DNA of 32,000 nt from Flavobacteriaceae bacterium (GCA_965224465.1 OZ245049.1:60001-92000); one strand, 5' to 3'; positions 395 to 17,500 are shown, counted from the stretch's first letter. Numbers and translations: made by a program. The notes: generated by a model from the letters alone, not told the origin.

Positions 395-730
395 TACCCG
401 CTGCGCAAAGTCTCCCGACTTAGCGCCACCATATTGCTCACATTATCAAAGAAAAAATATAAGAAGATTACATCGTAAGAGATCAAGAAAAGATACATTT
501 TATTACAGCTACTGTTAAAGATGTAATTATAGAAAGCTTAGAGTTTTGTATTCAAGTGCAACAAATTATATAAACAATGAAGGGTTACTTCCAGTGACAC
601 TTGTGGGCAATCCAGTAATTGATTATTAAAAACATCAACGATTAAGAAATTGAATCAAGAATAAAAATGAATGTAGGAAATTAACACATAAAAACAAAGC
701 TCAAAGTCGGGAGACTTTGCGCAGCGGGTA
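395..730 (+). mobile_element. Copy 1 of a ~340-bp hairpin-ended non-autonomous element with a decayed Y1 (RayT/IS200-like) transposase stub
   Basis: A perfect 27-bp terminal inverted repeat: tacccgctgcgcaaagtctcccgactt (395-421) versus aagtcgggagactttgcgcagcgggta (704-730). Each end also folds on itself (403-426 GCGCAAAGTC-tccc-GACTTAGCGC; 699-722). The interior reads EKIHFITATV/KDVIIESLEFCIQ followed by stop codons. Confidence 0.7.
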
Positions 731-734
731 GTTC

Positions 735-792
735 GCCAAATGTATTACTTTTATGTTTGAAAAAAAATAAACATAAAAGTAATACATTTGGC
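735..792. repeat. Perfect 24-bp-arm inverted repeat (hairpin) with a 10-nt loop
   Basis: gccaaatgtattacttttatgttt (735-758), loop gaaaaaaaat (759-768), aaacataaaagtaatacatttggc (769-792). The arms are exact reverse complements. It lies 4 nt after the right end of element copy 1 and 80 nt upstream of the lipoprotein ORF. Confidence 0.85.
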
Positions 793-872
793 TAATTGAT
801 AAATGAAAATCAGTACTTTTAACTTGCCCTACGATTTTTTATACTGGGCGTTGTATATAACTAAAAAAGACT

Positions 873-1499
873 ATGAAAATAAAAATACTTGGAATTACAT
901 TGGGTTTAATTGCCTTACTTAGTTGTAGTGAAAAAGCTGAAAATAAAGTAGAATTGCAAGAAGTTCAGAATGAAACACCTCAAGTACTTGACCAAAATAC
1001 TGATTACAAATTAAGCTCTATTTCCAAAAGATACAGTTCTGATATTATTTCAAAATTATATAATGAAGCTCTTGAGAAAAGTTCAAAACTCAATCAACTT
1101 AATGATGAAATAAATGGCGTTTTAGAAACTAAAAATGATAGCCTTTTAAATTACTCGAAATTTTCACAAACAAATACTAATTATTGGACAACAGCAAATA
1201 GTTATGTAAATCAGATACAAGATTCTGTTCTTAAAGAATCAACTCTTGAAGTTATCAAGGTTCTCGAATCAACATACAAGAATAAAATGTCTATTTACGA
1301 GCAGAAACTAATAGAAATTGACAAAAAGACAATCTCATTAAATGACCAATTGATATTAATGAAATTAGTTGTTACTGAGCCAATGATGAAAAATTATCAG
1401 CGAAATGAAAAACCTAACATTAAATCTTTAGAAATGATTATTAGTGAATATGACAGACTTATAAAAGAAACTGAAGAATACACTAATTTTGAAAAATAG
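873..1499 (+). CDS. Hypothetical lipoprotein (208 aa)
   Basis: ATG start. The N-terminus MKIKILGITLGLIALLSCSE is a signal peptide with a lipobox-like LLSC. The rest is a K/E/N-rich helical sequence with no recognisable enzymatic motif. It is flanked by element copies 1 and 2 in direct orientation. Confidence 0.55.
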   Translation: MKIKILGITLGLIALLSCSEKAENKVELQEVQNETPQVLDQNTDYKLSSISKRYSSDIISKLYNEALEKSSKLNQLNDEINGVLETKNDSLLNYSKFSQTNTNYWTTANSYVNQIQDSVLKESTLEVIKVLESTYKNKMSIYEQKLIEIDKKTISLNDQLILMKLVVTEPMMKNYQRNEKPNIKSLEMIISEYDRLIKETEEYTNFEK

Positions 1500-1521
1500 C
1501 AACGTACAAACAACTAAGTTT

Positions 1522-1863
1522 CGCTGCGCAAAGTCTCCTGACTTAGCGCCACCATATTGCTCACATTAGCAAAGGAAAAAGAATTAAAAAATAAAAGAAG
1601 GTTACATCATAAGAGATCAAGAAAAGATACATTTTATTACAGCTACTGTTAAAGATGTAATTATAGAAGCTTAGAGTTTTGTATTCAAGTGCAACAAATT
1701 ATATAAACAATGAAGGATTACTTCGAGTGACACTTGTGGACAATCCAGTAATTGAAGTATTAAGAAAAGCATCGATTAAGAAATTAAATCAAGAATAAAA
1801 ATGAATGTAGGAAATTAACATATAAAAACAAAGCTCAAAGTCGGGAGACTTTGCGCAGCGGGG
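1522..1863 (+). mobile_element. Copy 2 of the hairpin-ended Y1-stub element
   Basis: Colinear with 395-730 over its whole length. The left end is cgctgcgcaaagtctcctgactt (one substitution) and the right end is aagtcgggagactttgcgcagcggg. There are a few indels and substitutions in the interior. Confidence 0.7.
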
Positions 1864-1923
1864 AAAGAGGCCGAAAAAATTAAGAAAGTTTCACAAAAAA
1901 AAGAAGAAAGTAAAATGAGGCTG

Positions 1924-3040
1924 AATTCAAGTCACAAACGCAACTTTTAGTTAAATAATAATTGTTCCATTACAAATATAGGGTTTTGATATTTATGTCT
2001 CTTCCTAGGTCTGTTATTTAATTTTGTTTCTACCTCTTTGATTCTTTGATCTGTTAGGTTTGTAAAGTCACTTCCTTTGGCAAAATATTGTCTAATCAAA
2101 CCATTTAAATTTTCGTTAGATCCTCTTTCCCAAGAGTGATATGGATGCGCAAAAAAGTAATCAATACATAAATTTTCTGCAACCTGCTCATGGCCTGCAA
2201 ATTCTTTTCCATTATCAGCTGTTATAGTATGTAGATAAGGCTTCCAGTCTTCTAATATTTCATTGATAGCTTTAGTGACAACAACTGCTTCTTTAGAGCT
2301 TACTTTTTTCATTTTAAGCATTCCAGAAGCTCTATCATTTACGGTAAGTATGGCTTGATTATGGTTTTTACCTATGATTAAATCGACCTCTAAATCTCCA
2401 AATCGATTTCTTTGTTCAACAACTTCAGGGCGTTGTTCTATACTAATACGATTCTTTATAACCCCTCTAGAATCCTTTGATGAGCCACGTTTTCTATATC
2501 TCCTTCCCTGTCTGCGAAGGTGTGTATGTAAATCACCATCATTCCTCTTGTCTTCCCTAATATGCTGATATATACGCTCAATAGACACCGTTTCTTTACC
2601 TTGTTTTTTTAGGACACCAACTACTTGCTCAGGACTATAATCGTCTCGCAATAACAACTCTATTGCTTGTTGAATATCTTCTGTAAAGCGTTTTCTTTTA
2701 GGCTTTTCTTTATGACGTTTAGCATACTTTTTTTGGGCTAATTCATGCTTGTAAACTCCATTTCTTTTGTCTGAATTACGCTTAATCTCTTTGCTAATAA
2801 CAGACTTGTCTTTTCCTATAGCAGCTGCTATCTCAACCTGTTTATAACCTTGTTTTAACATGCAACAAATTGTGTATCTTTGCGCTTGGGTGATGTGTTT
2901 CATACAACTTCTTTTTTCGAGATTTGAGACCGTAAGATACATATCCATCAAGACAAGAAAGGTAGGTTTTCCTACTTTTCTGTTTTGAAAATATAACCAT
3001 CATAGAATCAAATCGAAAAGTTGCGTTTATTAGTTGAATT
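1924..3040 (-). mobile_element. IS30-family insertion sequence (complete copy)
   Basis: 25-bp imperfect terminal inverted repeats: aattcaagtcacaaacgcaactttt (1924-1948) versus aaaagttgcgtttattagttgaatt (3016-3040), with 22 of 25 positions complementary. They enclose a single transposase ORF. The exact outer ends are uncertain by a few bp, and no clear target-site duplication was seen. Confidence 0.75.
1947..2903 (-). CDS. IS30-family DDE transposase (318 aa from the ATG at 2903)
   Basis: MKHITQAQRYTICCMLKQGYKQVEIAAAIGKDKSVISKEIKRN is the typical IS30 N-terminal HTH. The DDE region reads DLEVDLIIG ... ITADNGKEF ... SWERGSNENLNGLIRQY. The ORF-track start at 2951 adds 16 poorly supported residues, so I prefer the ATG at 2903. 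Confidence 0.85.
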   Translation of the reverse strand: MKHITQAQRYTICCMLKQGYKQVEIAAAIGKDKSVISKEIKRNSDKRNGVYKHELAQKKYAKRHKEKPKRKRFTEDIQQAIELLLRDDYSPEQVVGVLKKQGKETVSIERIYQHIREDKRNDGDLHTHLRRQGRRYRKRGSSKDSRGVIKNRISIEQRPEVVEQRNRFGDLEVDLIIGKNHNQAILTVNDRASGMLKMKKVSSKEAVVVTKAINEILEDWKPYLHTITADNGKEFAGHEQVAENLCIDYFFAHPYHSWERGSNENLNGLIRQYFAKGSDFTNLTDQRIKEVETKLNNRPRKRHKYQNPIFVMEQLLFN

Positions 3041-4077
3041 TAAGTAACGATATATCTTTGTATAAAAAGGAAACTAAATTATTATTTAAAAAGATTCAAC
3101 AAGAGAGAAAATTTGCAGAGTTTATTGATGAATTAATAAATAGTTATGGTGACTTAATGGATCATATTGATTCCTTTTTATTAAAAGAACAAAGTGAATT
3201 AATCTTACAAATTAAAGGAAGAATCTTAGGATATTATAATGAAATAAACAAAGGAGACTCAAATGATGAAATAATCAGTGAAATAGAATTTAATCAGCAG
3301 AAAGATAAGACTTATTCAATTGATTTAGAGAGAAGTGATGGTTTTAAAAATGCAGGTGTAATTTTAAGTGAAGGGCATTTAAGATCGTTAGGATTATCTA
3401 TTATTTTATCCATAGCTGAATCATCTAATGTTCCATTTATAATTTTTGATGATGTTGTAAATGCTATTGATTCTGAGCATAGAGCAAATATTATAGACAT
3501 GATGTTTGACAATAAATTTTTAAAGAAAATTCAAATAATTGTTACAACTCACGATAGATTATTCTGGGAGAGATTTTGTAATATATATTCTAGTAAAATA
3601 AATAGAAAAGAACTATCTTCAATTAGCTCTTGTTTTAAATATCAAAATCAAGGAATTATCTATGTACCTTATCAAATTTCTTTTGAAGAAAAGATTAAAG
3701 AAGCATTATGTTATTCGGATATTAGACAGGCTTTAGTTTATTTAAGAATATGGTTTGAGACAATATGTTTCAATTACTGTAAAATGGCAAAAAAAACCAT
3801 TACTGGTCAATTTTCGCAAGATAATACAGGTAATTCATCACAATTAATGGTTTCGTTGACTAAAGTTTACAATAACATTATAACTCCCTCTTTTTCGTCA
3901 AGTGATAATTTAAAAGTAATTAAAGACAAATTAAATTGGAAATTTTTAAATCAAGAACATCACTCGTTTGATGAAAACATATTTAATGTAACTCATTCAA
4001 CAACGAGTAGTGAAATTGAAGATATTTTTATAGCAATTAAAAATTTTGAACAAGAAGTATTACAATCAAATAAATAA
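3041..4077 (+). pseudogene. 5'-truncated ABC/SMC-type (AAA_13/PrrC-RloC-like) ATPase gene, cut by the IS30 insertion
   Basis: The ORF-track ORF 3034-4077 starts at a TTG inside the IS30 right IR. The product has a signature-like LSEGHLRSLGLS, a Walker B PFIIFDDV, a D-loop AIDSEH and an H-loop VTTHD. It has no Walker A anywhere. A coiled-coil-like stretch precedes the signature, and about 170 aa of unassigned C-terminal sequence follow. Confidence 0.65.
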
Positions 4078-4292
4078 CGAACGCCAATAACACTCGTACA
4101 CCTCTAAAAACGCCGAAAAAACATTCTAAACAAGCTAGTAAACACCTGAAAGCTACTAAATACGCATAAGTACTCCCCGTAAAAACAACGATACTATCTA
4201 ATGTTAAAACGCCACGTTTACCATAAGAACAAGTACTCTTGTTGAGATTCTGAAAAACAGAGGTTATTGGTTGAAAATTTTTAAAAAAGTAA

Positions 4293-4342
4293 TTAAAAGG
4301 TTAGTGTGCGAAAAGGATATCTTTTGTATATTTGAAGGACGC
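4293..4342 (+). promoter_or_regulatory. Candidate Bacteroidetes-type promoter/operator (P1) upstream of ORF 4509-5183
   Basis: Contains TATATTTG (4327-4334), which fits the Bacteroidetes -7 consensus TAnnTTTG. The 50-nt block matches 6679-6727 at 39 of 50 aligned positions. A hairpin, cgctgtat-gttgt-atatagcg, lies just downstream (~4340-4362). Confidence 0.4.
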
Positions 4343-4508
4343 TGTATGTTGTATATAGCGGATTTATAAATAAATGCACCACTATTGTAGCTATTACGTA
4401 AATAACGTCAAGTTTAGGGTTGCTGTTGTGGATGTAGAGGTAGTTATCTGTAGTTTGAGTCAGCTTTTAGCCTAAATAAAAATGTGATACTTAAATAAAT
4501 CTCTTAGA

Positions 4509-5183
4509 ATGAAAAAAGTAACAGTAAAAAATCTAATTCAATTTCGAGGAAAAAATGAACGAACCAAAATTACGTTTGTTCATAATCTTAAGAAAGAAAA
4601 AAAGAAGTCTGAAGATAGTTCTGGAGGTGATTATTGGATAAGTTGTTTAAGTGCAATTAGAAATTCGTTTAGACTTAATGATGAAAGTTTATTGGATGAG
4701 AAAATAGATTTATTAAGAGATAAAATTGACGTAACAGAAATAAAAAGGATAAAAGACCAATTTCAAAGAAACATTGAGATTGTGGATAGCTTTAAAGAAT
4801 ATGATTTAAAACAACTAAAACCTAATACTGACTTAACTTTTTTAAAGCAAGCTAAAGCCGTGTCTTTATTGAATATTAATGGACTTCCTATAGAAGCTAA
4901 ACCTTGTCACATTTACACCTTTTCCGAAAACAGTAGTGAGGAAATTGGAGGGATTTGGTTTGTCGCAAAATTAAAAGGATTTAAGAAAAGTGAGTTGGGA
5001 ATGTTTACTGATGTACTTTATCGATATTTGGATAAAAATTACTCAAAAGACTTTTACGTTAACCCAGATTATTGTGTTGCTGTTGACCTTTTCAATGCTC
5101 AGGAAGTAAATTATTCAGATATTAAGAATGGAATAGTTCCAATCTTAATTGATAGTACAATAGAAGAACTAAATAAAATATAA
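4509..5183 (+). CDS. Hypothetical protein (224 aa), neighbour of the truncated ATPase
   Basis: ATG start and a clean ORF. There is no motif I can assign (MKKVTVKNLIQFRGKNERTKITFVHNL...GGDYWISCLSAIRNSF...). It is on the same strand as the ATPase remnant, 431 nt downstream of it. Confidence 0.5.
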   Translation: MKKVTVKNLIQFRGKNERTKITFVHNLKKEKKKSEDSSGGDYWISCLSAIRNSFRLNDESLLDEKIDLLRDKIDVTEIKRIKDQFQRNIEIVDSFKEYDLKQLKPNTDLTFLKQAKAVSLLNINGLPIEAKPCHIYTFSENSSEEIGGIWFVAKLKGFKKSELGMFTDVLYRYLDKNYSKDFYVNPDYCVAVDLFNAQEVNYSDIKNGIVPILIDSTIEELNKI

Positions 5184-5242
5184 AATCATGTTAGAATACA
5201 GTATTTCAGGAGTGTGGAAATATAATAATAATGTGATAATCC

Positions 5243-5384
5243 GCTCTCGTACGATTGTATAGTGTGATCGTAGCAATTTTAAGAATACTTAATATGAACT
5301 ATTTTTGCATATTACAATAATACATGAAAAATAAATAATTGTACGGCTTACTCGTTGACGCTACACGATAAAATCGTGCGGGAG
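5243..5384. mobile_element. Short (142-bp) MITE-like element with ~45-bp imperfect inverted ends containing a CACGAT-NNN-ATCGTG hairpin core
   Basis: The left end is gctctcgtacgattgtatagtgtgatcgtagc (from 5243). The right end is 5341-5384, whose reverse complement reads ctcccgcacgattttatcgtgtagcgtcaacgagtaagccgtac. The same end types recur at 5752 and 6546-6588. The right sub-terminal interior (ataatacatga.aaa.taaataa.tg.a.ggc) also matches the long copy. Confidence 0.5.
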
Positions 5385-5417
5385 TGGGGTTGCCACACAT
5401 AAAAAAAACAGAAACCA

Positions 5418-5687
5418 ATGGGAACATTAGAAAACAAACTTAAAACAGTTTCTGAAAAATACAGAAAGGAATATGCTTCAGTTTGCGAACCAATAAATGG
5501 TTTGGAATCTAGACGTGATAACGCTTTGAAATTTGACCCAATTAATGAAAAATTTAGGGACCAAATAATTGATGAGTTAAATAAATATTTAGAAAACAAT
5601 ATCGATTCTGACAAAGAGTCAGCCATTAAAATAGGACAAAAATATATCAAGGGTTTTGAGAAATATCTTATTGATCCTTTTTGTTAA
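5418..5687 (+). CDS. Small hypothetical protein (89 aa)
   Basis: ATG-initiated ORF lying between the two MITE-like elements. It is a helical K/E-rich sequence with no recognisable domain. The overlapping minus-strand ORF 5348-5650 looks less protein-like. Confidence 0.35.
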   Translation: MGTLENKLKTVSEKYRKEYASVCEPINGLESRRDNALKFDPINEKFRDQIIDELNKYLENNIDSDKESAIKIGQKYIKGFEKYLIDPFC

Positions 5688-5831
5688 TTGGTTGAATAAT
5701 GATTTCAAATCCTTCTTTATTCAATTCTTTTTCAATTTGAAACAATTTTCAGCTCTCGCACGATTGTATCGTGTGACCGCAGTAATTTAAGACTATTTTT
5801 TTAAAAAAAAAGACAATAAAAGTGTAATAAA

Positions 5832-6290
5832 ATGAATATTGAAAATACTTTAAAAAACTTATATAAGAGGTTAAAAGATTGTAATAATAAACATAAATCA
5901 GGAATTTTGTTTTTAGTGATTCAGTTGAAAACAGAAAATGAAGATTTAAAAAACCTTAAACAAACTAAATATAAGGATATTAAGTTATTTATAAAATATT
6001 ATATTAAATCTAGTGATAAAAGGGGGTTTGGGTATGATATTGTTAATGTAAGTAAGATCGTAAAGGCAATATCATATAATTCAAATATAAAAGAGAGATG
6101 TGAGCTGACTGTTTTTGCTATTAGTGTCTCGCTGCGCAAAGTCTCCCGACTTAGCGCCATCATATTGCTCATATTAGCAAAGAAAAATGAATTAAAAATA
6201 AAAGAAGGTTACATCATAAGAGATCAAGAAAAGATACATTTAATTACAGCTACTGTAGTGGATTGGGTAGATGTGTTTACAAGGAAATAG
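5832..6290 (+). CDS. Chimeric ORF: ~98 aa of unknown sequence fused in frame to the Y1-transposase stub of element copy 3 (probably not a functional gene)
   Basis: From about residue 100 the translation (VSLRKVSRLSAI...KEGYIIRDQEKIHLITATVVDWVDVFTRK*) is encoded by the inserted element, whose left end is at 6130. Confidence 0.3.
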   Translation: MNIENTLKNLYKRLKDCNNKHKSGILFLVIQLKTENEDLKNLKQTKYKDIKLFIKYYIKSSDKRGFGYDIVNVSKIVKAISYNSNIKERCELTVFAISVSLRKVSRLSAIILLILAKKNELKIKEGYIIRDQEKIHLITATVVDWVDVFTRK

Positions 6291-6505
6291 TACAAAGATG
6301 TAATTATAGAAAGCTTAGAGTTTTGTATTCAAGTGCAACAAATTATATAAGCAATGTAGGGTTACTTCCAGTGTCACTTGTGGACAATCCAGTAATTGAT
6401 TATTAAAAAAATCAACGATTAAGAAATTGAATCAAGAATAAAAATGAATGTAGGAAATTAACACATAAAAACAAAGCTCAAAGTCGGGAGACTTTGAGCA
6501 GCTGG
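6130..6505 (+). mobile_element. Copy 3 of the hairpin-ended Y1-stub element (least deleted copy)
   Basis: Colinear with copies 1 and 2 but retains a net 36 extra nt, so it encodes GYIIRDQEKIHLITATVVDWVDVFTRK. This matches the conserved N-terminus of Bacteroidetes RayT/IS200-like Y1 transposases (..Y.FRDQ...YF.TFTVV.WIDVFTR..YKD....SL..C) as I recall it. The right end is degenerate (ttgagcagctgg). Confidence 0.7.
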
Positions 6506-6678
6506 ACTCTATTTACATGAATAATACATGATAAACTAAATAACTGCATGGCTTACTCGTGGACGCTACACGATACAATAGAATGCAGTAGCGATGGTGG
6601 TTATTCATGCTGTATCAGAGGTTTTACTAAGTTTATGAATAACAAGAGTTAATAGCTAAAAATTTCCGAGTTGAATTG

Positions 6679-6727
6679 TTAAAAAGATAGTATGCGGGAA
6701 GAAATATTTTGTATCTTTGAAAGATGC
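6679..6727 (+). promoter_or_regulatory. Candidate promoter/operator (P2) of the channel-nuclease operon
   Basis: TATCTTTG (6712-6719) fits the -7 box TAnnTTTG. The block is 39 of 50 identical to P1 at 4293-4342. A perfect 15-bp direct repeat, aaattaaattgatta, occurs at 6736-6750 and 6781-6795, between the box and the ATG at 6843. Confidence 0.4.
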
Positions 6728-6842
6728 AATGGAGAAAATTAAATTGATTATAATAAGTTTTTATGTTCCATAAAATAATGAAATTAAATTGATTAAATGC
6801 ATTTATTAATTCCTGACATTTTGTAATCCCCAATGACTAAGA

Positions 6843-7646
6843 ATGATCAAAAAACTCTTTTTAAACGATAAATTCATACTAGTATTAATTTTACTAAATG
6901 CAATAATAATATTTTTTACGGGCTTTGATTTAACTATTAATAATAAGTTTCTTTTTTCACTTACAGATCATTTGATAACATGCTTATTTATTGTTGAATT
7001 AATAGTTAAGTTTAACGAGTTTGGAATTAAAAATTATTTCAAATCTAATTGGAGAAGGTTCGATTTTATTCTAATTTCCTTATCAGTACCAACATTGATT
7101 GCGTTTGTTGGAGATGTAGAACTCACTAGTTTTAGTTACTTTCTAGTATTTAGGATTTTGCGTGTGTTTAAATCATTTCGATTTTTAAAATTCATACCTG
7201 GAATTAATCATTTAGTAAGAGGTGTTAGTAGAGCATTAAAAGCATCAGTTGTTGTATTAATAGGCTTTTTTATTTATATATTTATAATTGGATTATTTTC
7301 GTTCTCCTTATTTAAAGAAGTTTCACCTGAATTTTTTGGAAATCCGTTAATGGCACTTTATTCTATATTTAAAATTTTCACTATTGAAGGTTGGTACGAA
7401 ATTCCAGAACTAATAACTGAAGGTCTATCACCTATAGCGTCGTTCTTTACGTATTTATATTTTATTTTCGTGGTGATGTCAGGAGGGATATTTGGTTTGT
7501 CACTTGTAAATTCAATTTTTGTAGATGCTATGGTAAGTGACAATAATGACGAACTTGAAAAGAAAATAGAAATATTAAATAGTAAGATTGATACATTATT
7601 AGCAAAAAAATATATATATAATGAAATTAGAAAAAATATTAGATAA
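6843..7646 (+). CDS. BacNav-type voltage-gated cation channel subunit (Ion_trans family, 6TM, 267 aa)
   Basis: Six hydrophobic segments. S4 has positive charges at every third residue (FRILRVFKSFRFLKF). The pore loop FTIEGWYE resembles the NaChBac/NavAb filter TLESW. S6 is FFTYLYFIFVVMSGGIFGLSLVNSIFVDAM. The C-terminal coiled-coil-like tail is DELEKKIEILNSKIDTLLAKK. Confidence 0.8.
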   Translation: MIKKLFLNDKFILVLILLNAIIIFFTGFDLTINNKFLFSLTDHLITCLFIVELIVKFNEFGIKNYFKSNWRRFDFILISLSVPTLIAFVGDVELTSFSYFLVFRILRVFKSFRFLKFIPGINHLVRGVSRALKASVVVLIGFFIYIFIIGLFSFSLFKEVSPEFFGNPLMALYSIFKIFTIEGWYEIPELITEGLSPIASFFTYLYFIFVVMSGGIFGLSLVNSIFVDAMVSDNNDELEKKIEILNSKIDTLLAKKYIYNEIRKNIR

Positions 7647-9474
7647 AGTAAATTCGCTAGAAAAGAATTCTTTTTTAAAAATTATAGATACTATTATTTC
7701 AAACAGGCCTAAGAATTATAAGGAAATTGAAAAGATACTATCGGAAAACAATACTAACCTTAAAGGCATAGATAACATCAATATTGCTAAAGTTTTTAAC
7801 CTTATTACAGATGAATTTACAAATGTGATAAAGCAAGAATTTGTAGATACATCCTCACAGCTTGATATTTTAATTGATATTATTATCCGAGATGCTCATA
7901 ATTTGATTAAAGAGGATTGGTTTGTAAAACTTTATGAAAAAGAAATTAGTGGTCTTAAAAGTAAAACGGAAGCCCTAAGTCAAAACCTAGAAAATAATAA
8001 ATCAGACATAGAGAATCAACGAAAAAGAGATTATTTGATTTATAAATCATGTGTAGAGACTGCCTATTTTAATGATAACGTGAGTAATAGAGATACGAAA
8101 ATAACAAGTGATGAATTATCTATTCTGTTAACGCTATCTAATGAACTTAAATTATCACAAGAAGAAATTAAGCTAATAAATTATATCGTAATTCCTCCTG
8201 TCAAATTACAAATTGAAAAAGTAATTAATGATTTAAAATCGGTTGGACTTATATTTTATTCAAAGAAAAACAGACAAGTTTATGTTGCGGATGAGGTTGT
8301 AAGAGTCTTAAGGGGAATTCGTAAAAAACAAGTTGCGGATAAATTTTATCGTCGTTTTTTAAAATTATTAAGAGAACCTCAAATAAATATAGTCTGTAGG
8401 AATCATAATATTGATATAAAATTATCTTTAGATCATAAAATAAAAAACATCATTAATGAGGGGATTTCATTTTCAAATTTGTTGGTAAATGAATTACATA
8501 AGGAAGGGACTTCATTAAATGAAAAAAAGAAATTTGTTAAAGAAATTTGGGAAAAAGGATTTGAAATCTCTGTTCCTCTTAAGGGAATAACCTTAGAAGA
8601 AAAAATTGAAAATTTAATAAGGTATTTTGATGAAATAGAGCAAGATGATAAAGTTGGAATCTCGAATGATGGTTATGGTCAACTTCTTTCTGATTTACAC
8701 GATACCTTTCCTTTACTAAATAATTTGATTCGATCAGAATTTGAAATTCAAAATGAATTTGTTTTGAACAATGTGTATTTGCGGGATTACAATATAAAAC
8801 CTAGGGATATTCTGGATATGATTGAGCAAAAGGATTTAATGAAGTTTTGCAATAAATATAATCTAAAAAAGCGAGGGAATAGTATTTTAAACATTCTTGA
8901 TGGTTATAAAGATGCTGAAAATCTATTTATAGAAAATTTCGAAAACATTGGTTTCAGAGACTTAAGATCACTGAAAGAGAATGGGATAAATATAAAAGAA
9001 GCAGAGTTAGGTGTTAAATTTGAAGACATTACAAAATCAGTATTTGAAAAATTAGGTTTTAATGTGGATGAGGATTTAAAAAAGAATCTTAATACTAAGA
9101 AAAATAAAATTGATTTAGTGTTAAATTTAGGAGATCAAGGTCTAATCATAATTGAATGTAAAACGGTAAAAGAGAGTGGTTATAATAAATTCAGTTCTGT
9201 AACCAGACAAATGAAATCGTATATAGATTTAGCGAAAGATAATGGACATAATGTTGTGAAATCATTGCTGATTGCACCGGGATTTAGTGATGAATTTGTA
9301 AGTGATTGTGAGATAGACTTTGAATTAAATTTATCATTGATAACAGCTTCTTCTCTTTTAAAAATATTAGAGGCTTTTAAATGTTCAAAACACAAAGCAT
9401 TTCCTTATCAACTCTTGATGAAAGACGTATTGATTAAAGAGGATAGAATAATTAAAGCGATTAATAAGAAATAA
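7621..9474 (+). CDS. 617-aa protein with a C-terminal Mrr-like PD-(D/E)xK restriction-endonuclease-fold domain and an unassigned N-terminal ~460 aa
   Basis: The ATG at 7621 overlaps the channel ORF by 26 nt. The C-terminus reads FEDITKSVFEKLGFNV...KIDLVLNLGDQGLIIIECKTVKE...VKSLLIAPGFSDEF...LSLITASSLLKIL. This fits the Mrr_cat pattern (FE..v..ll...Gf.v, D in a beta strand, then E-x-K). The N-terminal part is helical and contains several SAP/HeH-like stretches. Confidence 0.7.
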   Translation: MKLEKILDKVNSLEKNSFLKIIDTIISNRPKNYKEIEKILSENNTNLKGIDNINIAKVFNLITDEFTNVIKQEFVDTSSQLDILIDIIIRDAHNLIKEDWFVKLYEKEISGLKSKTEALSQNLENNKSDIENQRKRDYLIYKSCVETAYFNDNVSNRDTKITSDELSILLTLSNELKLSQEEIKLINYIVIPPVKLQIEKVINDLKSVGLIFYSKKNRQVYVADEVVRVLRGIRKKQVADKFYRRFLKLLREPQINIVCRNHNIDIKLSLDHKIKNIINEGISFSNLLVNELHKEGTSLNEKKKFVKEIWEKGFEISVPLKGITLEEKIENLIRYFDEIEQDDKVGISNDGYGQLLSDLHDTFPLLNNLIRSEFEIQNEFVLNNVYLRDYNIKPRDILDMIEQKDLMKFCNKYNLKKRGNSILNILDGYKDAENLFIENFENIGFRDLRSLKENGINIKEAELGVKFEDITKSVFEKLGFNVDEDLKKNLNTKKNKIDLVLNLGDQGLIIIECKTVKESGYNKFSSVTRQMKSYIDLAKDNGHNVVKSLLIAPGFSDEFVSDCEIDFELNLSLITASSLLKILEAFKCSKHKAFPYQLLMKDVLIKEDRIIKAINKK

Positions 9475-9493
9475 CTGAATTACCAACAAAAAA

Positions 9494-9526
9494 AAGCCAA
9501 CACTCCCAAAAAAGGAACGTTGGCTT
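9494..9526. terminator. Bidirectional intrinsic terminator between the convergent nuclease-domain gene and pfaD
   Basis: The stem is aagccaac (9494-9501) / gttggctt (9519-9526), with inner tcc/gga pairing. It is flanked by an A-run upstream and a T-run (9525-9529) downstream. Confidence 0.6.
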
Positions 9527-9551
9527 TTTAAATAAATATTCAGTCATTAGA

Positions 9552-11156
9552 TTACCCCACAACCAAACGCTCCACCTCAGGTTCCAATTCCAATTGCAAC
9601 AAGCCAATCGGTAATTCCACCCCTTGGTCCTTAATCGTATTGATACGATGCAAATACGCAGCACCTTCCAACAACTGTAAAGCAACATCCGCAACTTTAC
9701 GGTTTTTAGCTTCGCTTAGGTAGGAATCTTTGGTCCATTCGTTAAAGGCACCCATGGCAGGGCCACACCAAATTTGATAGTCCATAATTCTGTCTGGCGT
9801 ACCAGCATTTGCCCAGTTAGAAGACAAGCCTAGGTACCAACGGAAGATCAATGCCATTTTTCGTTTTGGGTTTTGCTTGGCTCTTGCTATTTGTTCTGGA
9901 TCTCTTTCTTCGAAGAAACTCACACAACCTTCCCAAACCTTTTCTAAAGGCATTTTAAAAGTCTGTTTCTCTAATTTTATACGTTCGTCTGCTGGGATTG
10001 CATCGATGCTCTCGTAGCGGTTGTAATAATCGTATAGTTTTTTTGCTCTGGCACCGAATAAGGTACCGCGTTTTAAGACTTGCAATTCCACGCCCAATTC
10101 GAACATATCGGAAGCGGGAGCCATGGTCACATCCGTAGAAGCGACTTTGGACAATAATTCTTTTACACCCTCCGAAGTACCTGATTCTATACAAGCTTGG
10201 TTGATAGAACCCGTTACGATATAGGCAGCACCCATGGCAAAAGCAGCTAATGCCGCCGCAGGGGTTCCGATACCACCGGCTGCACCCACACGGAGTTGTT
10301 TTTTGTACTGGTATTTTTGTTGAAGTTCGTCTCTTAATTGTAAGATGATGGGGAACAAGACTACCAAGGGACGGTTGTCCGTATGTCCTCCAGAATCTGC
10401 TTCTACGGTAATATCATCCGCCATGGGTACTTGTTGTGCAAGCGTGTGTTGCTCTTGAGTGATTTTCCCTGCGGCGAGTAAGTTGTCTAAGAATTTAATA
10501 GGTGCGGGAGACATAAAACGTTCTGCCACTTCTTTTCGAGAGATTTTCCCGATCACTTTATTTCCGATGATTATTTCTCCTTGTGCGTCTCGGCTCAATC
10601 CAACGGCTCTGTATTTTACAATTTGCTCGGATAAGTTCATATACGCCGAGGCTTCTACGACTTTTACTTTGTGTTTGATAAATAAATTCACAGCACCTTC
10701 TTCCAATGCCTTTTCAATAGGACTGTGGATGAGGTTGCAAGCGTAGGTTTGTGTAGGCAAGCCTGCTTGAATTTCGGCAATGGCTGCTTCTACACGTGCA
10801 GGAATCATTCCGGCGGCTCCAAAGGAACCCATCAGTTCGTTTCTTCCTAAAGAAATCACCATATCGGTAGAGGCAATTCCGTTTGCCATGGCGCCTCCTT
10901 TATAGGCGTAGCTGAGGTTGTAGTCTTCTTTAAAAGATGTGTCTCCGAGGTCTTTTGCTGTAAAAGCGGGAACAATTGCTTTTAAAAACAAACCATTTCC
11001 TTCAGATTGGATTGTTCCTGTATTGGTAATTCCGATGCGTCCTGATAAATCTTTTACCACATAGCATGGAATGGCAGTGTTTTTTAATTTTTCGGACATT
11101 CCTTTGTGGTCAAAGGAGATCTCTCTGGGAGATCCTATCCATTTTAAATCGATCAT
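9552..11156 (-). CDS. pfaD: PUFA synthase enoyl reductase PfaD (FMN-dependent, 2-nitropropane dioxygenase-like)
   Basis: GGAMANGIAS...MGSFGAAGMIPARVEAAI...CNLIHSP...VEASAYM...VEADSGGHTDNRPL...VGAAGGIGTP closely parallels Shewanella PfaD as I recall it. The ORF-track start at 11198 is a TTG, so I prefer the ATG at 11156 (MIDLKWIG...). Confidence 0.9.
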   Translation of the reverse strand: MIDLKWIGSPREISFDHKGMSEKLKNTAIPCYVVKDLSGRIGITNTGTIQSEGNGLFLKAIVPAFTAKDLGDTSFKEDYNLSYAYKGGAMANGIASTDMVISLGRNELMGSFGAAGMIPARVEAAIAEIQAGLPTQTYACNLIHSPIEKALEEGAVNLFIKHKVKVVEASAYMNLSEQIVKYRAVGLSRDAQGEIIIGNKVIGKISRKEVAERFMSPAPIKFLDNLLAAGKITQEQHTLAQQVPMADDITVEADSGGHTDNRPLVVLFPIILQLRDELQQKYQYKKQLRVGAAGGIGTPAAALAAFAMGAAYIVTGSINQACIESGTSEGVKELLSKVASTDVTMAPASDMFELGVELQVLKRGTLFGARAKKLYDYYNRYESIDAIPADERIKLEKQTFKMPLEKVWEGCVSFFEERDPEQIARAKQNPKRKMALIFRWYLGLSSNWANAGTPDRIMDYQIWCGPAMGAFNEWTKDSYLSEAKNRKVADVALQLLEGAAYLHRINTIKDQGVELPIGLLQLELEPEVERLVVG

Positions 11157-11404
11157 TTTAGTGTCTATATTTTGAGTCTTGTGTCCTTTAATTTTCAATA
11201 AGTATTATTATTAATGGACTGCTTAAGACGGTTGTTTATTGCCTTGCTTCTAAAATTTTTTTAAAGAAGCCTCTTTATTGTTTTTCAAATCTTTTTTTAA
11301 TCCCACCAGTGGGTTTAATTTTCCGATGCTTGTATCGAAATGATTAAGGGTTGTTTTCTCTTTTTTATGCCTCGTAGTCCTGAGCTTATTGACTGTTGTA
11401 TTTC

Positions 11405-11508
11405 GCATTAAGGATAGAACGGCCTGTTTGAGCTCTTTTTTTGTTTTTTTACAAAAAAAAGCGAGTAGTGAAAGCCTGACCCGACCTTTTTTGGGAGGGG
11501 AATGCCCA
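11405..11508. repeat. Intergenic repeat family member X (related to 27589-27697)
   Basis: Shares with 27589-27697 the ordered blocks gcat..ggatag.a..ggc, an all-A/T hairpin tttttttgt-tttttt-acaaaaaaa (11436-11459), ccgacctttt and atgccc. Confidence 0.5.
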
Positions 11509-11524
11509 CATTATTTTAAAAATT

Positions 11525-11559
11525 AAGGAGGAAGATTTTATGCATTTTCTTCCTCCCTT
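11525..11559 (-). terminator. Hairpin immediately after the pfaC stop codon (possible intrinsic terminator/attenuator)
   Basis: On the minus strand the sequence reads AAGGGAGGAAG-aaaatgcataaaat-CTTCCTCCTT followed by AATTTTTAAAATAA. The core stem is 8 perfect bp. The T-tract is short and interrupted. Confidence 0.4.
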
Positions 11560-11564
11560 GTTTT

Positions 11565-14500
11565 TTATGCTTCCTGAATTCCAATGGCTAAATCTGTCAA
11601 TTGATAGATTCTTGTGCCTTCGTTCCACAGATACGCATTGGCGATAATTACCAAGGTGTCTTCTCGTTTTTCGATGGTTTTAAAATGCACTTCTAAATGC
11701 ATGTTTTCCACGTTTACTTTAATTTGTCCGCGGTATTTCCATTCGGTTTTATTATTAGCGACCTGTACAAAGCGTGGTTTTTTAAAGTCTTTTCCTAAGT
11801 CTTGTTGTAGGGCGAATAACTGCATGGCTTGTGAAATGGCTTCGACGCCTAAGGATCCTGGCATTACAGGGTCTGAGTAAAAATGACAGGTAAAGAACCA
11901 GTCGTAGGTATGGATGGCTTTGGAGCAATGGATGTATCCTTTGCCAAATTCGCCGCCGTCTTTTACGAGCAATCCGCTGTCTAGTAAATTCAATTGATCT
12001 GTTGATAAACGGAAGGTGTTTGTTGGATCATTTTCTTTATACAATTTCATTTTTGCGTATAAAGAGTCGAGCTTGATTTGGAAATAATCCTTGGGGGTCA
12101 ACTTGTTTTGTACATACCATGCGGGTACGTCTTTCCCATTGTCCAAGCCTACTTGTTGTGCCAAGGCTTCTTTAGGGAAGAATCCGAAGGAGGAGAATCC
12201 TTTATAGAACACATAGCCGTCTACGGAGACTTCGAAGAGGTATTTCTGAATTACAAAACCGCCTAATGCCGTTGAGGAGGTTAAGGTTGCTTTGTTGTGA
12301 ATTACTTTTCCTCTAAAGTCGGTACCTGCGGGGAGGTCGATCATTTCGCCATCTCCATCCAAGTTTCTAAAGTATAAATCTTTGTCTGGGAATTGTAGGG
12401 TGGATCCTAAATAGGCGCCTAACAATCCACAGGGTTGCAATGCTATTTCCATTAAAATGGCGTACGGCATGGTCATGGAAGCGTTTTGTGTGTAATACCA
12501 CGCATCGGCTGGCACGTCGTATTCTGTCCAAATATTTGTTGCTTTTTTAAAGTTAAATCGTTCTCCGTCTATTTTAATAACACGGCTTACGACTTGCAAG
12601 TCGGTATTTGGTTGGCGGGACAAGGCTCTGTTGTCATACACGGCGTATTCTGGACCAAAACAATCTGCCAATCTGCCTAAGGCAAAGGTTTCGATGTCTT
12701 GTTCGTTGAGCAATACGTTCTCGGTTATTTTTTTAGGTTGTTCTAGGTATTTTGGATTGTCTTTTTCTCTTATTTGCAATCCTAAATCGGCAAAATGAAC
12801 GGTAATTACACCGTCTACAATAATTTCTAAATCGCCAATCACATAAGGGTCTGGCAACAATCCGATGTCTTTAATTACCAAGCGATACATTAATTTCTTA
12901 TCATTAGGGGTCACTTCTTTTCTACAACGTACTTTTTGAGCAACTCCGTAGATAGGTTGGAAACGTGCATCTTTTTTAAGGCGTTGTAGCCCTAGCATCA
13001 TCATAAAGAAACGGAGTAAGTTACCGCCGCCTTCTGCTTGTAAAGATCCTGCCAATACTTGGTCGTCTCTAAAATGACAAGGGAAATACCAATCGTCTGG
13101 ACTTAGGTCTTTTTCTGCTATAATTTCTCCCAATCCATAAGGACCTCCGTGGACGTCTGCTTTGGTAATGCGATCCAACATCAGCATTTTTTCTGGTGCT
13201 AAACGGATGGATTTATTTTTACCGTTGGGGAAGTAGGAGATATCGTCAAAACATGTATGTGCATCTCCGTTGATAAGATGTCTTAAATCCTGAATATCAA
13301 ATGCGGTCTTTTTAGTAGTTAAAAAGGGAATGAATTTTTTCTTTTCTACGCCCGCTAAAATTTTCTTTTCAGCTTCGGTATATACAACACCATTTCCTTT
13401 ACTCAATTCTTCATCGGTAAAGAAGCCAGCCACTCCATTGGTCATTTTTAAGACAAGGCGGTCTTCTACAAAGCATTCGTAGCTAAAGAAGAACAATAGG
13501 TTACGTCCATTTCTTACAAAGGAATTGATAGAGATATCATAACGTAGGGTTTGCCCTTCAAAAGGCAGGTCGTCCGTAAAGGTAAGCGTACAGTCGAGTA
13601 GGCGATAGACATAGTCTCCTTTGTTTTCTAAGTCGATGCCTAAATAAGAGATCAACATCAAATCACATTGTCCTGATTCTACCGAAACTGCCCATGGGAT
13701 TTGTGTATCGGTGGCATAGCCTGAATTGTAAGGAATGTCGTATTCCGTTTGCATGGTAGACGGTTTGTATTCGCCTAGCTTGGCATTTAATCCTGTGACT
13801 CTACTCACCAATAGGTAAGGATCCATAGGAAGCATCACACGGCGTTTGTATTGGTCGATTACATTGTATTCCGCACCAAAGACATTGCTTATTTTACCTT
13901 CGGAAAATTCGATTAAATCTTCTTTGTTAAAAATAATGTTTTTCCCTTTTAAATGATTTGGGTCTGTGTAATCTTGTAATTTTAAGCCGTTTTCTGCGAT
14001 TGTTGTTGCAGTTTTAGGTGTTGTGTTAGCTATCATATACCTTTTTTTCTCTAATGTGTTTGTGCTAGTAATTGGGATTTTTAAGTCCGTTTTTTGGGGT
14101 GTATTTGCTTCTTTCTTTAGGTGTTTAATTTGAGCAAATTGATGTTTCATATCTTCGGATAATAAGACATCGTATATACGTCTTCCTCCTGTTTTAACTT
14201 TTTTGCTAAATCTTTTTTTAAGGATTGTTTCTTGTTGTTTTGGATATAACAGTCCTAGGTCTACCTCAATGCCGTTTGCAATTAATTGTGCCAAGCACTC
14301 GAACAATGATTGTACGGAACTGCTTCCTTTCTTATCGATGGCACAGCTAGCATGGGTTTTTTGATCCAAGGTTCCTTTGATCCAATTGCTACAGGTACTA
14401 TTAGGGCCTAGCTCTACAAAAGTGCTAAAGCCATTTTTTGACATTTGATGAGCAAAGGCAGGGAAATCTACTGTTTTATAACATACTTCTGTCGAATTTT

Positions 14501-17500
14501 GGGCGATTTTTAAACTGTCCATCGGAAGTTTTTTTCCTGTTAAACTAGAGTAGAATTCGATGTCAGGACGTTGTTCCAAAGGGAAATTGTGCATTTCAAT
14601 AAGTCCGTCGTATTCCTTTTTACAGAATTCGTTATGAATAATGTTTTGAAAGGGAACCAATATAGATCCACAATTTAATTCGGAGATAAGGGCTTTACAC
14701 TGGCTTTTATCACCCGAAATAATCAATTCCTTGTCCGAATTCACAAAAGTGATAGAGACTTTGTCAAATTTAGAAATTACAGCTGCAACGTCTTCTTTTT
14801 TTGCTAATAAAATCCAGCTTTGCCACCTTTCTTTTGCTTCGGTTGTAGTTATATTCCACGCATCTGCCAATACTTCTAAGTTTCCAGAAAATTTATTTTT
14901 AAAGATAGGGGAGTTGCGAAACACCTTGGTACCTTCACTTGGATTCCAAACACCAAAAGCATACCACATAGAACTGCATTCTCCCATGCTATATCCCATA
15001 GCAGCTTTTGGTTTGATACCAAAATAGTTTCTTAAAATATGGGTGTACAACGTGGCGTATAAAACACCTGCCGACATCATAGAAATGGCGTCTTTTTGTA
15101 TGGGAGGAGTCTGTTCTGCGGTGGATTGTTTTTTAGGGAAAATATAATTTAAGGAAAAGAATTCCTTAAGGTTTGGAATGCGTGTTTCAAAATCGTGGAG
15201 TAGCTGGGGGAAGAATTGAAATAAATCCTGTCCTAGCCCTTCATAACTGGTGGCGGATCCTGGATATACAAATGCTAAATCTCCCTTGGCTGCCGAGGGT
15301 GTTGGTGTAAAGAACGTACCGCTTGGTAATTTGAGGTCTGTCCCTGTTTTAAACGAAGTGTCTACTTGTTTTTCTAAGAATTTAAGGTCTTGTAAGAGTG
15401 CGTTTTTATCCTTAGCAATCAATACAATTCGATGGCTTTTTTTAAGGGTTTTTTCCTTGTTAAAATGTGCTTGGGCTAGGGCATTCAAGCTTGTTGTAGC
15501 AATGTTTTTGTGAAGGGTTGCTATTTGTGCTTTGAGCTCGTTGGCATTGTTTCCTTGTAAAACCAATATATGCGTACCCAAATAATTATTGATAGGTGCT
15601 TTGTCTTCTCTGATTACTTCTGACAATTGCACGCGATCTTGCAATCCTAAATTCACCATTGCCTGTCTCGGAACAGCTGTTTCGTTTACCCAAGGTCTTG
15701 ATTGACTAGGGAAATAATAATTACTGTTTTTGAGTGCCTCATTTTTAAAAGCTTTCCAGTTAGGAATGCCTGGGATAAATTGATGGTATACACAAAGTGC
15801 TGTCTTTACGATAGCTGCCAGTCCAGAAGCGGCAAAGGTATGTCCAATGTTTGTTTTTACCGATCCTAAGGCAACCTTGTTTAAGGGTTTTGCTTGTATT
15901 AATTGTGCTTGCTCTAATTGGTCTTCTTGGTGAAACCCTGTAGCGACTAATTCTTGCAAAGCGATATTGGGATGGATGTCTAAATCACCAATGGCTTCTA
16001 TTTTTGCATAGACAGTATCTGCTTTAGAGACATCTTCATTGGCTTTTAAAACGATGGCTGCGGCTCCTTCACCAATCAACCAACCGTAGTCGTCTGCATT
16101 AAATGATAGGCTAGGGCGTTTGTTTTGGTTTACCTGAGTGACTAAATTTCTCAAGAGTACAGCTTCCATTCCTGCGGAGAATTCTACAGCACCTACAACT
16201 ACGGCATCTACTTCGCCTAAGGACAACATGTTTTGTGCAACTTCTAAGGCTCTGGTGGTTCCTTGATTTCCGTTACTAATGGTAAAGGAAGGCCCACTGA
16301 AATCCCAAAGGGCAGAAATACGACTCGACATAATATTTCCTACAAAACTTGTATGCTGACTCGGCGCTTGTACCTTTCCTATTTGATATAGGATGTTTCT
16401 ACACTCTGCTAAAAGGGTTGTTTTTTGAGTTTTGTCTAAATCGATACCTGCCATGGCTAAGGCTTTGTCCAATTGCCATTGACTGTCCCAACGTGCTAAG
16501 TAATGATGAATTGCCAATTCTGGATTCATGGCAACTAATACCGCTACGTTTTGTCCCTTTTTAAGATTCGATTTTTGAATGGCTTGATCCGCCACTTTTA
16601 AAATCAAGGCTTGTTGAGGTTCCATGGTATCAATTTCGTTGGGTTGGATTTTATAACGCATTAAATCCATGTCAAAATCAGCAATGTAATTTCCTTTCGG
16701 TGCCTGTTTTGTATCTAAACCAAAGGAAGCCATGACTTCTGATTGGGCTTCAAATCCTTTCCAACGATTCTTTGGCATCTCAGAAAAATGCTGTTTTCCT
16801 TCAAAAATAGTTTGGTAAAAATGATCTAAATTATCGCAATCGCCAAAATGAACTTCCATACTGGTAATTGCCATTTCTTTTAGAGGGGTCGCTTTTAAAG
16901 GGCGATGTGCATCTTTATTATGGCTTTCTACGACCAAATGCGCATTGGTACCACCAAAGCCAAACGAATTGACCGCGGCTTGCTTATGGTTTGTTTCCCA
17001 TTTTAAAGGTTCTTCTATGATTTGCTCTCGTTGAAACCAACCATTTTCTGACTGAATGGCTTCGCCCATATTAATTCCAGGAGGAATCATATCGTGCTCC
17101 ATAGAAAGCAATACCTTTATTAAACTTGGCATACCGGCTGCGGTAAGCATGTGTCCCATATTTGACTTTACAGAACCCAATCTGATTTTGTCTGGGTTTT
17201 CACCAAAAAAACTTTCTAAAGAATTGATCTCTGTGACATCGCCAAGGGGAGTTCCAGTAGCATGACATTCGATATAAGAAGTGTCCTTTTTAGAGAGACT
17301 TCCATTGTAGGCTCTTTCATACGCCAAGGTTTGTCCTTTTGGATTGGGGCTTAATAAAAATTTACCAGCACCATCATTGGACAATCCAATACCTGCAATC
17401 ACACCGATAATAGTATCTCCATCTCTTTCGGCATCAGACAATCGTTTTAATAAAATCATTCCTGCGCCTTCGGAAGAGACCAAGCCAGAAGATTCCTTGT

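Follow-up and report, generated by a model that had tools for sequence, protein, structure and literature searches.

A voltage-gated cation channel recurrently, but not obligatorily, encoded beside a FokI-type nuclease in Bacteroidota: a possible undescribed anti-phage module

The voltage-gated Na+ and Ca2+ channels of prokaryotes, whose physiological role is largely unknown, share a simple architecture: both the CavMr/AnclNav proteins and the BacNav proteins (NaChBac, NavAb, NavMs) are single-domain members of the Ion_trans family with six transmembrane (TM) segments, a charged S4, a T-x-E-x-W selectivity filter and a C-terminal heptad helix, and the known BacNav and CavMr genes have been described as stand-alone. 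The present report deals with a channel gene of the same construction which, unlike these, overlaps the gene of a 617-amino-acid (aa) nuclease; the two lie in a 32,000-nucleotide (nt) stretch of DNA from a Flavobacteriaceae bacterium (GCA_965224465.1, OZ245049.1:60001-92000), here called the window, and the coordinates of the locus are counted from the first letter of that whole stretch. The channel gene (6843..7646, plus strand; 267 aa) shares 26 nt (7621..7646, plus strand) with the nuclease gene (7621..9474, plus strand), the stop of the former falling within the start of the latter, which is an arrangement of the translational-coupling kind; the start codon of the 617-aa open reading frame (ORF) is backed by the alignment of its homologues, all of which begin at M1. 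The pair recurs in about 30 other Bacteroidota genomes and may be an undescribed anti-phage module. The coupling of a membrane component to a nuclease is, as such, of a known kind; the two components found here, a voltage-gated channel and a FokI-type nuclease, had not previously been linked, and in the literature searched for a channel-nuclease pairing no description of it was found.

Among the known anti-phage systems, Zorya combines an ion-driven membrane complex, ZorAB, with the ZorC/ZorD nuclease, and Kiwa combines a membrane sensor, KwaA, with a DNA-binding effector, KwaB. The logic, that of a presumed detector of infection in the envelope acting with a cytosolic effector directed at DNA, is like the one that may be at work in the channel-nuclease pair, but there is no homology with either system: ZorAB forms a 5:2 motor resembling MotAB, KwaA is another membrane protein, and the membrane component is here a predicted voltage-gated tetrameric cation channel, with a nuclease that is often found alone. 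RexAB of phage lambda and the membrane effectors of CBASS and of type III CRISPR systems (among them the tetrameric pore Chp1) likewise join a cytosolic part related to nucleic acids to an ion-conducting membrane protein, the output being depolarisation; however, RexB, the Cap-type effectors and Chp1 are not Ion_trans proteins, have no voltage sensor and are gated by a ligand or a partner, and the channel-nuclease pair is without a nucleotide-signalling enzyme. On the side of the nuclease, the cleavage domains of FokI and of Nt.BspD6I/R.BspD6I have a fold equal to that of the C-terminus of the 617-aa protein, with D...(D/E)xK on equivalent strands, and all of these proteins are of about 580-620 aa, with the recognition part (putative in the 617-aa protein) at the N-terminus and the cleavage part at the C-terminus. 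The 617-aa protein differs from FokI and BspD6I in lacking a sequence-level match to them, in its first 430 residues, which, searched alone, give no match to the D1-D3 domains of FokI, and in belonging to a family which has no cognate methyltransferase and is sometimes operonic with an ion channel. The Type IV enzymes Mrr, MspJI and AspBHI resemble it in being solitary and methylase-less, with a C-terminal PD-(D/E)xK domain and N-terminal recognition.

The relationship between the two genes was analysed by calling ORFs in the 80 best loci of the nuclease family (all from other species) and clustering all neighbours within 4.5 kb, 78 of the loci having enough upstream DNA. A homologue of the channel lies directly upstream of the nuclease and on the same strand in 29 of the 78, to which one on a cut contig may be added; it is the sole recurrent neighbour family, the next commonest being present in four loci. 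Adjacency of the two genes is thus a property of other genomes as well (29-30 of the 78 best loci). The junctions are tight: in 23 of the 29 paired loci the genes overlap by 32, 26, 23, 11 or 4 nt, in five they are separated by spacers of 2-5 nt, and in the remaining one, where the channel is truncated, a gap of 230 nt precedes the nuclease. A census by genus gives a similar picture, since an Ion_trans gene is found within 2 kb of the nuclease in 24 of 144 carrier genera and in none at random places; arranged from the lowest to the highest band of likeness to the nuclease, the counts are below 3 in each of the first two bands (9 and 24 carriers), 15 of 99 in the third and 3 of 12 in the fourth. 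In the reverse census, a nuclease stands beside the channel exclusively among close relatives of the latter: in 0 of 144 and 0 of 75 genera of the two lower bands (together 0 of 219), in 12 of 75 of the third band and in fewer than 3 of the 6 in the highest. On the grounds of the neighbour survey and of both censuses, the association is specific, but most members of either family are without it, and in most genomes the nuclease stands alone. The earlier note on this DNA, made from the sequence of the window, had proposed a self-contained channel-nuclease system: the pairing is real and recurrent, but it is not obligate, both families being mostly solitary.

In a tree of 80 nucleases two clades are fully supported, one comprising 37 rows without a channel and the other 43 rows with a channel in 29-30 of them; in a wider tree the paired clade is nested among solitary lineages. 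The channels behave similarly, 27 paired ones forming a single well-supported clade with one solitary member inside it. Within the paired clade of the nucleases, the distribution of the channel over the tree indicates that it has been lost several times. When 400 genomes of the class were sampled, 21 carried close relatives of the channel and only one of them, G526, an adjacent nuclease. Its order is reversed (L118, G526:C11, 4218-6833, minus strand): the 617-aa nuclease comes first and is followed, after a 6-nt spacer, by a 251-aa Ion_trans channel. Because neither of the G526 genes falls within the main paired clades and their order is reversed, we read this locus as a second, independent association of the two families, and as the strongest argument against mere hitch-hiking of one gene with the other.

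Pairwise ratios of nonsynonymous to synonymous substitution rates (dN/dS) range over 0.05-0.13 in the channel and 0.03-0.065 in the nuclease, dS being similar for both, and indicate strong purifying selection on the two genes. Several of the comparisons approach saturation; the closest pairs deserve the most trust. Near-identical pairs are found in different orders (for example in Maribacter and Sunxiuqinia), and the nucleotide similarity to G747, a genome of the same genus as that of the window, extends from 5 nt before the ATG of the channel to 5 nt before the stop of the nuclease, with none beyond. Since near-identical pairs cross orders, dS is similar in both genes and the similarity is confined to them, the two genes move and persist as one unit.

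It is against this background that the absence of any functional link has to be considered, namely that a mobile solitary nuclease landed beside a channel gene and has been transferred together with it ever since, the two proteins having separate jobs. The mostly solitary state of both families, the repeated loss of the channel, the heterogeneity of the flanking genes and the lack of evident co-adapted residues would all agree with such an accident, which is nevertheless rather unlikely: a start/stop overlap or a spacer of at most 5 nt has been kept in 28 of 29 diverged loci, other neighbour families do not recur, the channel, while paired, experiences strong purifying selection, within the genus the nucleotide sequence is conserved exactly over the two-gene unit and no further, and the reversed pairing arose independently in different lineages of both genes.

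The identity of the channel is well established by Pfam and PDB matches and by its orthologues, of which 26 occupy the equivalent position beside the nuclease in other genomes. Ion_trans (PF00520) matches residues 10-234 of the 267-aa protein with an E-value of 2.1e-27 and 96.3 bits (cutoff, 25), and the match takes in 232 of the 241 positions of the model; in the PDB the sequence matches are NavMs (2.3e-21), NaChBac (1.4e-18), NavAb chimeras and the repeats of eukaryotic Cav and Nav channels. The protein is therefore, by its sequence, a six-TM voltage-gated cation channel of the BacNav/AnclNav-like type, as the earlier note had recognised, and the hallmarks which that note had listed (basic residues at every third position of S4, a T-I-E-G-W pore filter at residues 180-184, a C-terminal coiled coil, an overlap of 26 nt with the following ORF) are borne out, the coiled coil in the form of a heptad pattern in the tail. 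In particular, the translation places the voltage-sensor charges of S4 at R104, R107, K110, R113 and K116 (7152..7190, plus strand). Across about 105 close carriers (genera), positions 104 and 107 are always R and positions 110, 113 and 116 nearly always R or K; among the nuclease-paired channels (26 orthologues) R104, R107 and R113 are invariant.

The selectivity filter, T-I-E-G-W-Y-E (residues 180-186; 7380..7400, plus strand), belongs to the CavMr or Cav domain I type, its fourth residue being Gly and its seventh acidic. Practically all of the roughly 105 close carriers have the same E182, G183 and W184, and residue 180 is T in 96 of them and S in nine; the conservation of these three residues and of the S4 charges also holds in the 26 paired orthologues. 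The filter of CavMr is TLEGWVD, so that Gly4 and the acidic position 7 are common to the two, and mutagenesis has proven that Gly4 determines the Ca2+ selectivity of CavMr, the equivalent residue being conserved in domains I and III of Cav channels (PMC7041947). TIEGWYE fits the pattern taken from that work, T-x-E-G-W followed by a polar or acidic residue at position 7. Owing to this CavMr-type Gly4 in TIEGWYE, the channel probably passes Ca2+; by analogy, Ca2+ permeability would be likelier than Na+ selectivity.

Downstream of S6, the alignment identifies a neck, S-D-N-N-D-E-L-E, continuing into a C-terminal helix with heptad repeats read from the sequence (7536..7628, plus strand). The neck residues S232, D233, N234, N235, E239 and K241 are invariant among the paired channels, and the heptad pattern visible in the tail is formed by L238, I242, L245, I249 and L252. 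The genome has only one other Ion_trans channel spanning the whole domain; it was considered as a paralogous partner and rejected, being a Kv-type K+ channel with a TVGYGD filter. This Kv-type channel (L006, G000:C1:5149220-5152858, 1393-2214, minus strand) has a Cys-rich tail of the form CxxC...CxxC, zinc-ribbon-like and unusual for Kv.

The 617-aa protein matches phrog_34709 (function unknown) over its full length and is otherwise defined by its homologues and by a structural model; nothing above threshold was found for it in Pfam, NCBIfam, PADLOC or the PDB, whether a single sequence or a profile was used. An AlphaFold2 model computed from a 44-sequence alignment has a predicted local distance difference test (pLDDT) value of 90 and a predicted template modelling (pTM) score of 0.81. 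Structure comparison of this model assigns residues 431-617 (8911..9471, plus strand) to a FokI-type PD-(D/E)xK cleavage domain: with VIA, the domain is closest to FokI (Z 14.8; root-mean-square deviation 3.0 over 155 residues), Nt.BspD6I (Z 14.2) and the small subunit of R.BspD6I (Z 12.4), HindIII following with Z 10.2 and the other nucleases with 9.8 or less (10.5 at most). When the whole model was submitted to Foldseek, the top matches were again BspD6I (E 7.4e-5) and FokI (6.4e-4), although it is apparently the C-terminal domain of the model that accounts for the full-length alignment to FokI. The neighbours of the protein in the ESM Atlas, beyond its own clusters, carry FokI_cleav_dom, some of them also SAP, at a feature similarity of 0.90-0.91.

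At the level of the sequence the relationship is much less apparent. Pfam FokI_cleav_dom (PF09254) gives no match to the 617-aa protein even at E-values up to 10, and Mrr_cat (PF04471) stays below its gathering score, with 16.3 bits for the whole protein and 19.1 for the C-terminal piece, the cutoff being 21; the C-terminal part gives weak but mutually consistent matches to the PD-(D/E)xK families Mrr_cat, YraN, NERD, HSDR_N and Cas4. The description of the protein as an Mrr-like PD-(D/E)xK nuclease, suggested by the earlier note together with a Pfam check on both genes, has consequently to be divided: the quoted motifs and the nuclease fold are there, as is PF00520 above its cutoff in the channel, but PF04471 is sub-threshold (16.3-19.1 against 21 bits) and the nearest structures are FokI and Nt.BspD6I, not Mrr. 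The Type IV enzymes MspJI and AspBHI reach structural Z values of 6.8-7.6 against the cleavage domain, which is clearly nearer FokI.

The putative catalytic residues, identified by alignment and model, are E468 in a helix, D498 at the start of a strand and E512-C-K514 on the next strand (9022..9162, plus strand), the model placing them on the helix and the two consecutive strands expected for a PD-(D/E)xK motif. D498, E512 and K514 are invariant in all 44 sequences, down to an identity of 26%, and so are Q530 and Y534, while E468 is invariant among members of at least 46% identity. Since the D/E/K residues are kept down to 26% identity, the cleavage domain is likely to be active, as judged from alignment and model, and the protein to be an enzyme instead of a mere sensor; loss of these residues would, according to the earlier note, have counted against its proposal.

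The N-terminal region (residues 1-430; 7621..8910, plus strand) is, in the model, a helical region without a clear known fold. It is all-helical with two small hairpins and, modelled alone, has a pLDDT of 89; in a Foldseek search with the region alone nothing was better than E 0.7, and in VIA the Z values do not exceed 7.4, with weak recurring matches to winged-helix (residues ~60-236) and SAP-like (238-292) structures. Having neither a clear known fold nor a match above threshold, this part does not resemble a housekeeping family. To judge from the model, it is probably a DNA-binding or recognition module built in a new way; no known domain reading modified bases (SRA, YTH and so on) was detected in the 617-aa protein.

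The likeness to FokI raises the question whether the protein could be a classical Type IIS restriction-modification enzyme, whose methyltransferase would be encoded elsewhere in the genome and to which the channel would be irrelevant. The FokI/BspD6I-like cleavage domain, the about equal total length and the FokI_cleav_dom annotation of the ESM Atlas neighbours would be expected in this case, but the assignment is most improbable: no methyltransferase is encoded in the window and none is recurrent beside the gene in the 80 loci surveyed, the N-terminal region alone has no match to the recognition domains of FokI or BspD6I, Pfam FokI_cleav_dom is not matched by sequence, and a mobile cassette devoid of a methylase would be lethal wherever unmodified sites were cut. 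The 617-aa family is instead a sizeable uncharacterised group of FokI-type nucleases without a methylase and with a new N-terminal region, of possible interest for enzymology and as a programmable-nuclease scaffold.

The best-supported reading is that the nuclease, mobile and restriction-like, acts alone in most genomes and that a voltage-gated, probably Ca2+-permeable channel has been recruited to it at least twice. Beyond this, the reading preferred here, to which a probability of about 0.45 is given, is that of a mobile two-gene cassette in which an autonomous restriction-like nuclease is joined by a recruited channel adding a membrane-potential layer to defence; of its parts, we infer the role in defence, the selectivity for Ca2+, and how and in which direction the two proteins are coupled. 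The 617-aa protein would be an autonomous, methylase-less, restriction-like endonuclease, its N-terminal region recognising DNA and its C-terminal domain cutting it; because the gene stands alone in most genomes, the nuclease would have to recognise and cut its target unaided, and this target would most likely be foreign or modified DNA, in the style of Type IV or innate restriction. Neither a methyltransferase nor any other gene that might confer immunity recurs beside it; as for the tolerance by the host of an apparently active nuclease, the simplest guess is modification dependence, as in Type IV enzymes. One lineage of the nuclease would have recruited the channel, and a second one would have done so independently, in the reverse gene order. 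Co-translated with the nuclease, the channel would be opened by the depolarisation of the membrane that accompanies the entry of phage DNA, and the resulting influx of cations (Ca2+) would either stimulate or license the nuclease or arrest the cell while the invader is degraded.

In its most explicit form, the proposal would make of the voltage-gated, Ca2+-permeable channel an electrical sensor of infection, converting the depolarisation caused by phage entry into a cation signal that controls or complements a FokI-type nuclease; taken as a whole this form is doubtful. If true, it would give a BacNav/CavMr-type channel its first immune role and provide a case of bacterial excitation-effector coupling. 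More generally, if the pair is a defence module, a true voltage-gated channel would join the membrane components of anti-phage systems and membrane potential would be usable as a signal of infection; for the prokaryotic voltage-gated channels, the conserved pairing with a nuclease offers a hypothesis that can be tested at the bench.

The order of events could also be inverted, as in RexAB: the nuclease-fold protein would sense invading DNA, or a DNA-protein complex, and open the channel, so that the membrane potential collapses and the cell dies or is arrested, nuclease activity being secondary or absent. The tight coupling and the recurrence of the gene pair suit such abortive infection, the combination of a sensor with an ion channel is already known from RexAB as a logic of defence, and the position of the channel gene, first and overlapping the second, fits stoichiometric co-production of the two proteins. 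It is unlikely all the same, as the D/E/K residues, invariant down to 26% identity, indicate a probably active enzyme and not a sensor alone; the nuclease, mostly solitary with unchanged sequence features, should have an output of its own; the strictly conserved S4 charges point to voltage, and not to a protein ligand, as the input; and between paired and solitary nucleases no signature of an interface is seen. Given the strict conservation of the voltage sensor and the retention by the nuclease of a catalytic site of its own, we favour, as far as sequences can tell, membrane voltage as the input of the channel over gating by the nuclease-fold protein.

Several observations weigh against the preferred reading of a defence cassette with a voltage layer. 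Most close relatives of the channel are solitary, and at least eight gains or losses of the channel are forced within the paired clade, which makes it appear dispensable; indeed, one locus (L029, 5790-5947) retains directly 5' of an intact nuclease just a remnant of the channel, corresponding to residues 1-25 and 210-240 and produced by an internal deletion, and in another (L033) the channel is truncated. Nor can a dedicated interface be made out, the sole fixed difference between paired and solitary nucleases being K601R, and the neck motif of the channel, present in solitary related channels too, is not specific for pairing. Fused forms were not seen either in the 150 best representatives of the nuclease (longest full-length match, 635 aa) or among the longer relatives of the channel, where just four-repeat eukaryote-like channels came up, although this is weak evidence. 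As far as defence is concerned, PADLOC-DB 2.0 has no family for either protein at E-values up to 0.01, and in the 80 other loci the nuclease is flanked for the most part by ordinary genes (hydrolases, peptidases, secreted proteins, the beta subunit of DNA polymerase III, catalase), the contexts of the pair in G747 and G526 being ordinary too. The DNA-binding role of the N-terminal region, moreover, is read from weak fold matches in the model, and direct activation of the nuclease by Ca2+ would not be an obvious mechanism, Ca2+ usually failing to support PD-(D/E)xK catalysis.

Some of these observations concern what had been asked about the pair at the outset. Of the outcomes which, by the earlier note, would overturn its proposal, none of those open to computation was observed. 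The absence of a PADLOC match, together with the outcome of the literature searches, agrees with the earlier view that the pairing is undescribed; to the question whether homologues lie in defence islands, the survey answers that the pair is elsewhere mostly among ordinary genes. The few defence-like flanking genes in the 80 loci (AAA_15/PtuA/AriA-like, PDC-S01, RhuM and IS200) were counted with no formal background comparison. Prediction of a complex of the full-length channel and the nuclease with paired alignments gave a score of 0.00, which is no verdict either way.

The nuclease family is large and its distribution is complicated by what seems to be extensive transfer. More than 2800 homologues of the 617-aa protein are present in a large protein collection, the 120 best ones listed being of 616-625 aa, with at least 64% identity, and belonging to several orders of Bacteroidota; clustered at 50% identity, the full-length members of the family fall into about 20 groups. 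In a set of about 185,000 species genomes it has 461 loci, and its carriers, 144 of 36,145 genera in 24 phyla including archaea, are mostly Bacteroidia, with others in Desulfobacterota, Calditrichota, Patescibacteriota and in Asgard and DPANN archaea. Its occurrence is patchy, with 6 of 401 sampled genomes in the phylum and 1 of 28 in the family, and varies within the genus. Homologues of about 60-68% identity (P0050, L056, L069, L082 and others) are assigned to Promethearchaeota/Asgard, DPANN archaea, Patescibacteriota, Cloacimonadota, Latescibacterota and other groups; such far-flung homologues mean that horizontal transfer has been recent and very wide or that metagenome bins are contaminated. 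One Paceibacterota metagenome-assembled genome has two copies of the channel-nuclease pair.

In collections of mobile genetic elements the family is rare. No record of the INPHARED phage collection has it; in IMG/VR a single contig, UViG_2839188362_000002 (L125, 5001-6845), carries a solitary nuclease of 58% identity and is the only carrier in a viral collection, and in the plasmid collection there are only three Pseudoalteromonas megaplasmids, at 34% identity. In one of these distant homologues (34%; L095, 6001-7845, on an 843-kb plasmid or chromid of Pseudoalteromonas donghaensis) the gene lies between an HNH endonuclease and a block of metallophosphoesterase, EutP-like GTPase and DEAD-box helicase, a context which looks more defence-like than most of the Bacteroidota loci.

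The near-absence from phage collections (0 INPHARED records, 1 IMG/VR contig), as well as the very strong conservation of the sequences and the frequent location of the cassette among ordinary chromosomal genes, would be in keeping with a physiological module unrelated to defence, in which a voltage-gated Ca2+ channel is coupled to a cytosolic DNA-processing protein, so that, for example, excitation or ionic stress leads to DNA repair, recombination or uptake. A function of this kind is quite improbable in view of the very patchy distribution described above, of transfer across phyla at 60-65% identity, which is atypical of housekeeping genes, of the fold, which is that of a restriction-enzyme cleavage domain, and of the distant homologues adjoining an HNH endonuclease and a DEAD-box helicase.

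The immediate surroundings of the gene pair in the window are those of an island rich in mobile elements, as had been noticed from the start: the fraction of G+C is 0.25-0.35 across bases 1-10000, compared with 0.36-0.45 across the adjacent pfa cluster, and an insertion sequence (IS) of the IS30 family is present. The promoter-like block assigned to the pair holds up less well. A candidate -7 promoter box of the Bacteroidota type, TATCTTTG (6712..6719, plus strand), lies 124 nt 5' of the ATG of the channel and does match the consensus, but it is a weak feature given by pattern matching, and matches of this kind occur at chance frequency (50 in the window, 48.8 expected); in a scan of the region, sigma-70-type promoter matches were fewer than the shuffled mean. 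The promoter of the pair is thus only a candidate. The bidirectional terminator proposed for its other end is found as a hairpin with a 17-pair stem (9491..9529), bordered by runs of A and of T on opposite sides, which sits between the nuclease gene and the convergent pfaD and is common to both genes. Another terminator-like hairpin (6476-6499, minus strand) lies inside the 550-nt gap 5' of the channel gene.

The IS30-family element (HTH_38 and rve domains) extends over about 1900-3048, its transposase ORF occupying 1947-2951 on the minus strand. It was probably active in the recent past, since at least 14 near-identical copies (99-100%) are present in the 5.24-Mb genome. Its end coincides exactly with the start of an ORF at 3034-4077 (plus strand), which matches the C-terminal half alone of AAA_21/SMC_N ATPases as well as the PADLOC models mad3, AriA and AbiLi, and which is probably, on sequence grounds, a defence-type ATPase gene broken by the insertion. 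Scans of the region with Rfam and for tRNA genes gave no matches. On the other side of the pair, a complete polyunsaturated fatty acid synthase cluster of the pfa type (PfaD-like, KS/FabA, KR/DH, and KS-AT with five ACPs) covers 9552-27097 on the minus strand, alongside a TetR regulator and a phosphopantetheinyl transferase. Finally, short repeats of 60-200 nt occur at 372-465, 644-730, 1516-1605, 1808-1868, 5243-5373, 5728-5790 and 6126-6332; they are present many times over in this and other genomes of the genus, sometimes in tandem, and, resembling miniature inverted-repeat transposable elements (MITE) or repetitive extragenic palindromic (REP) sequences, they fill the intergenic DNA of the island.

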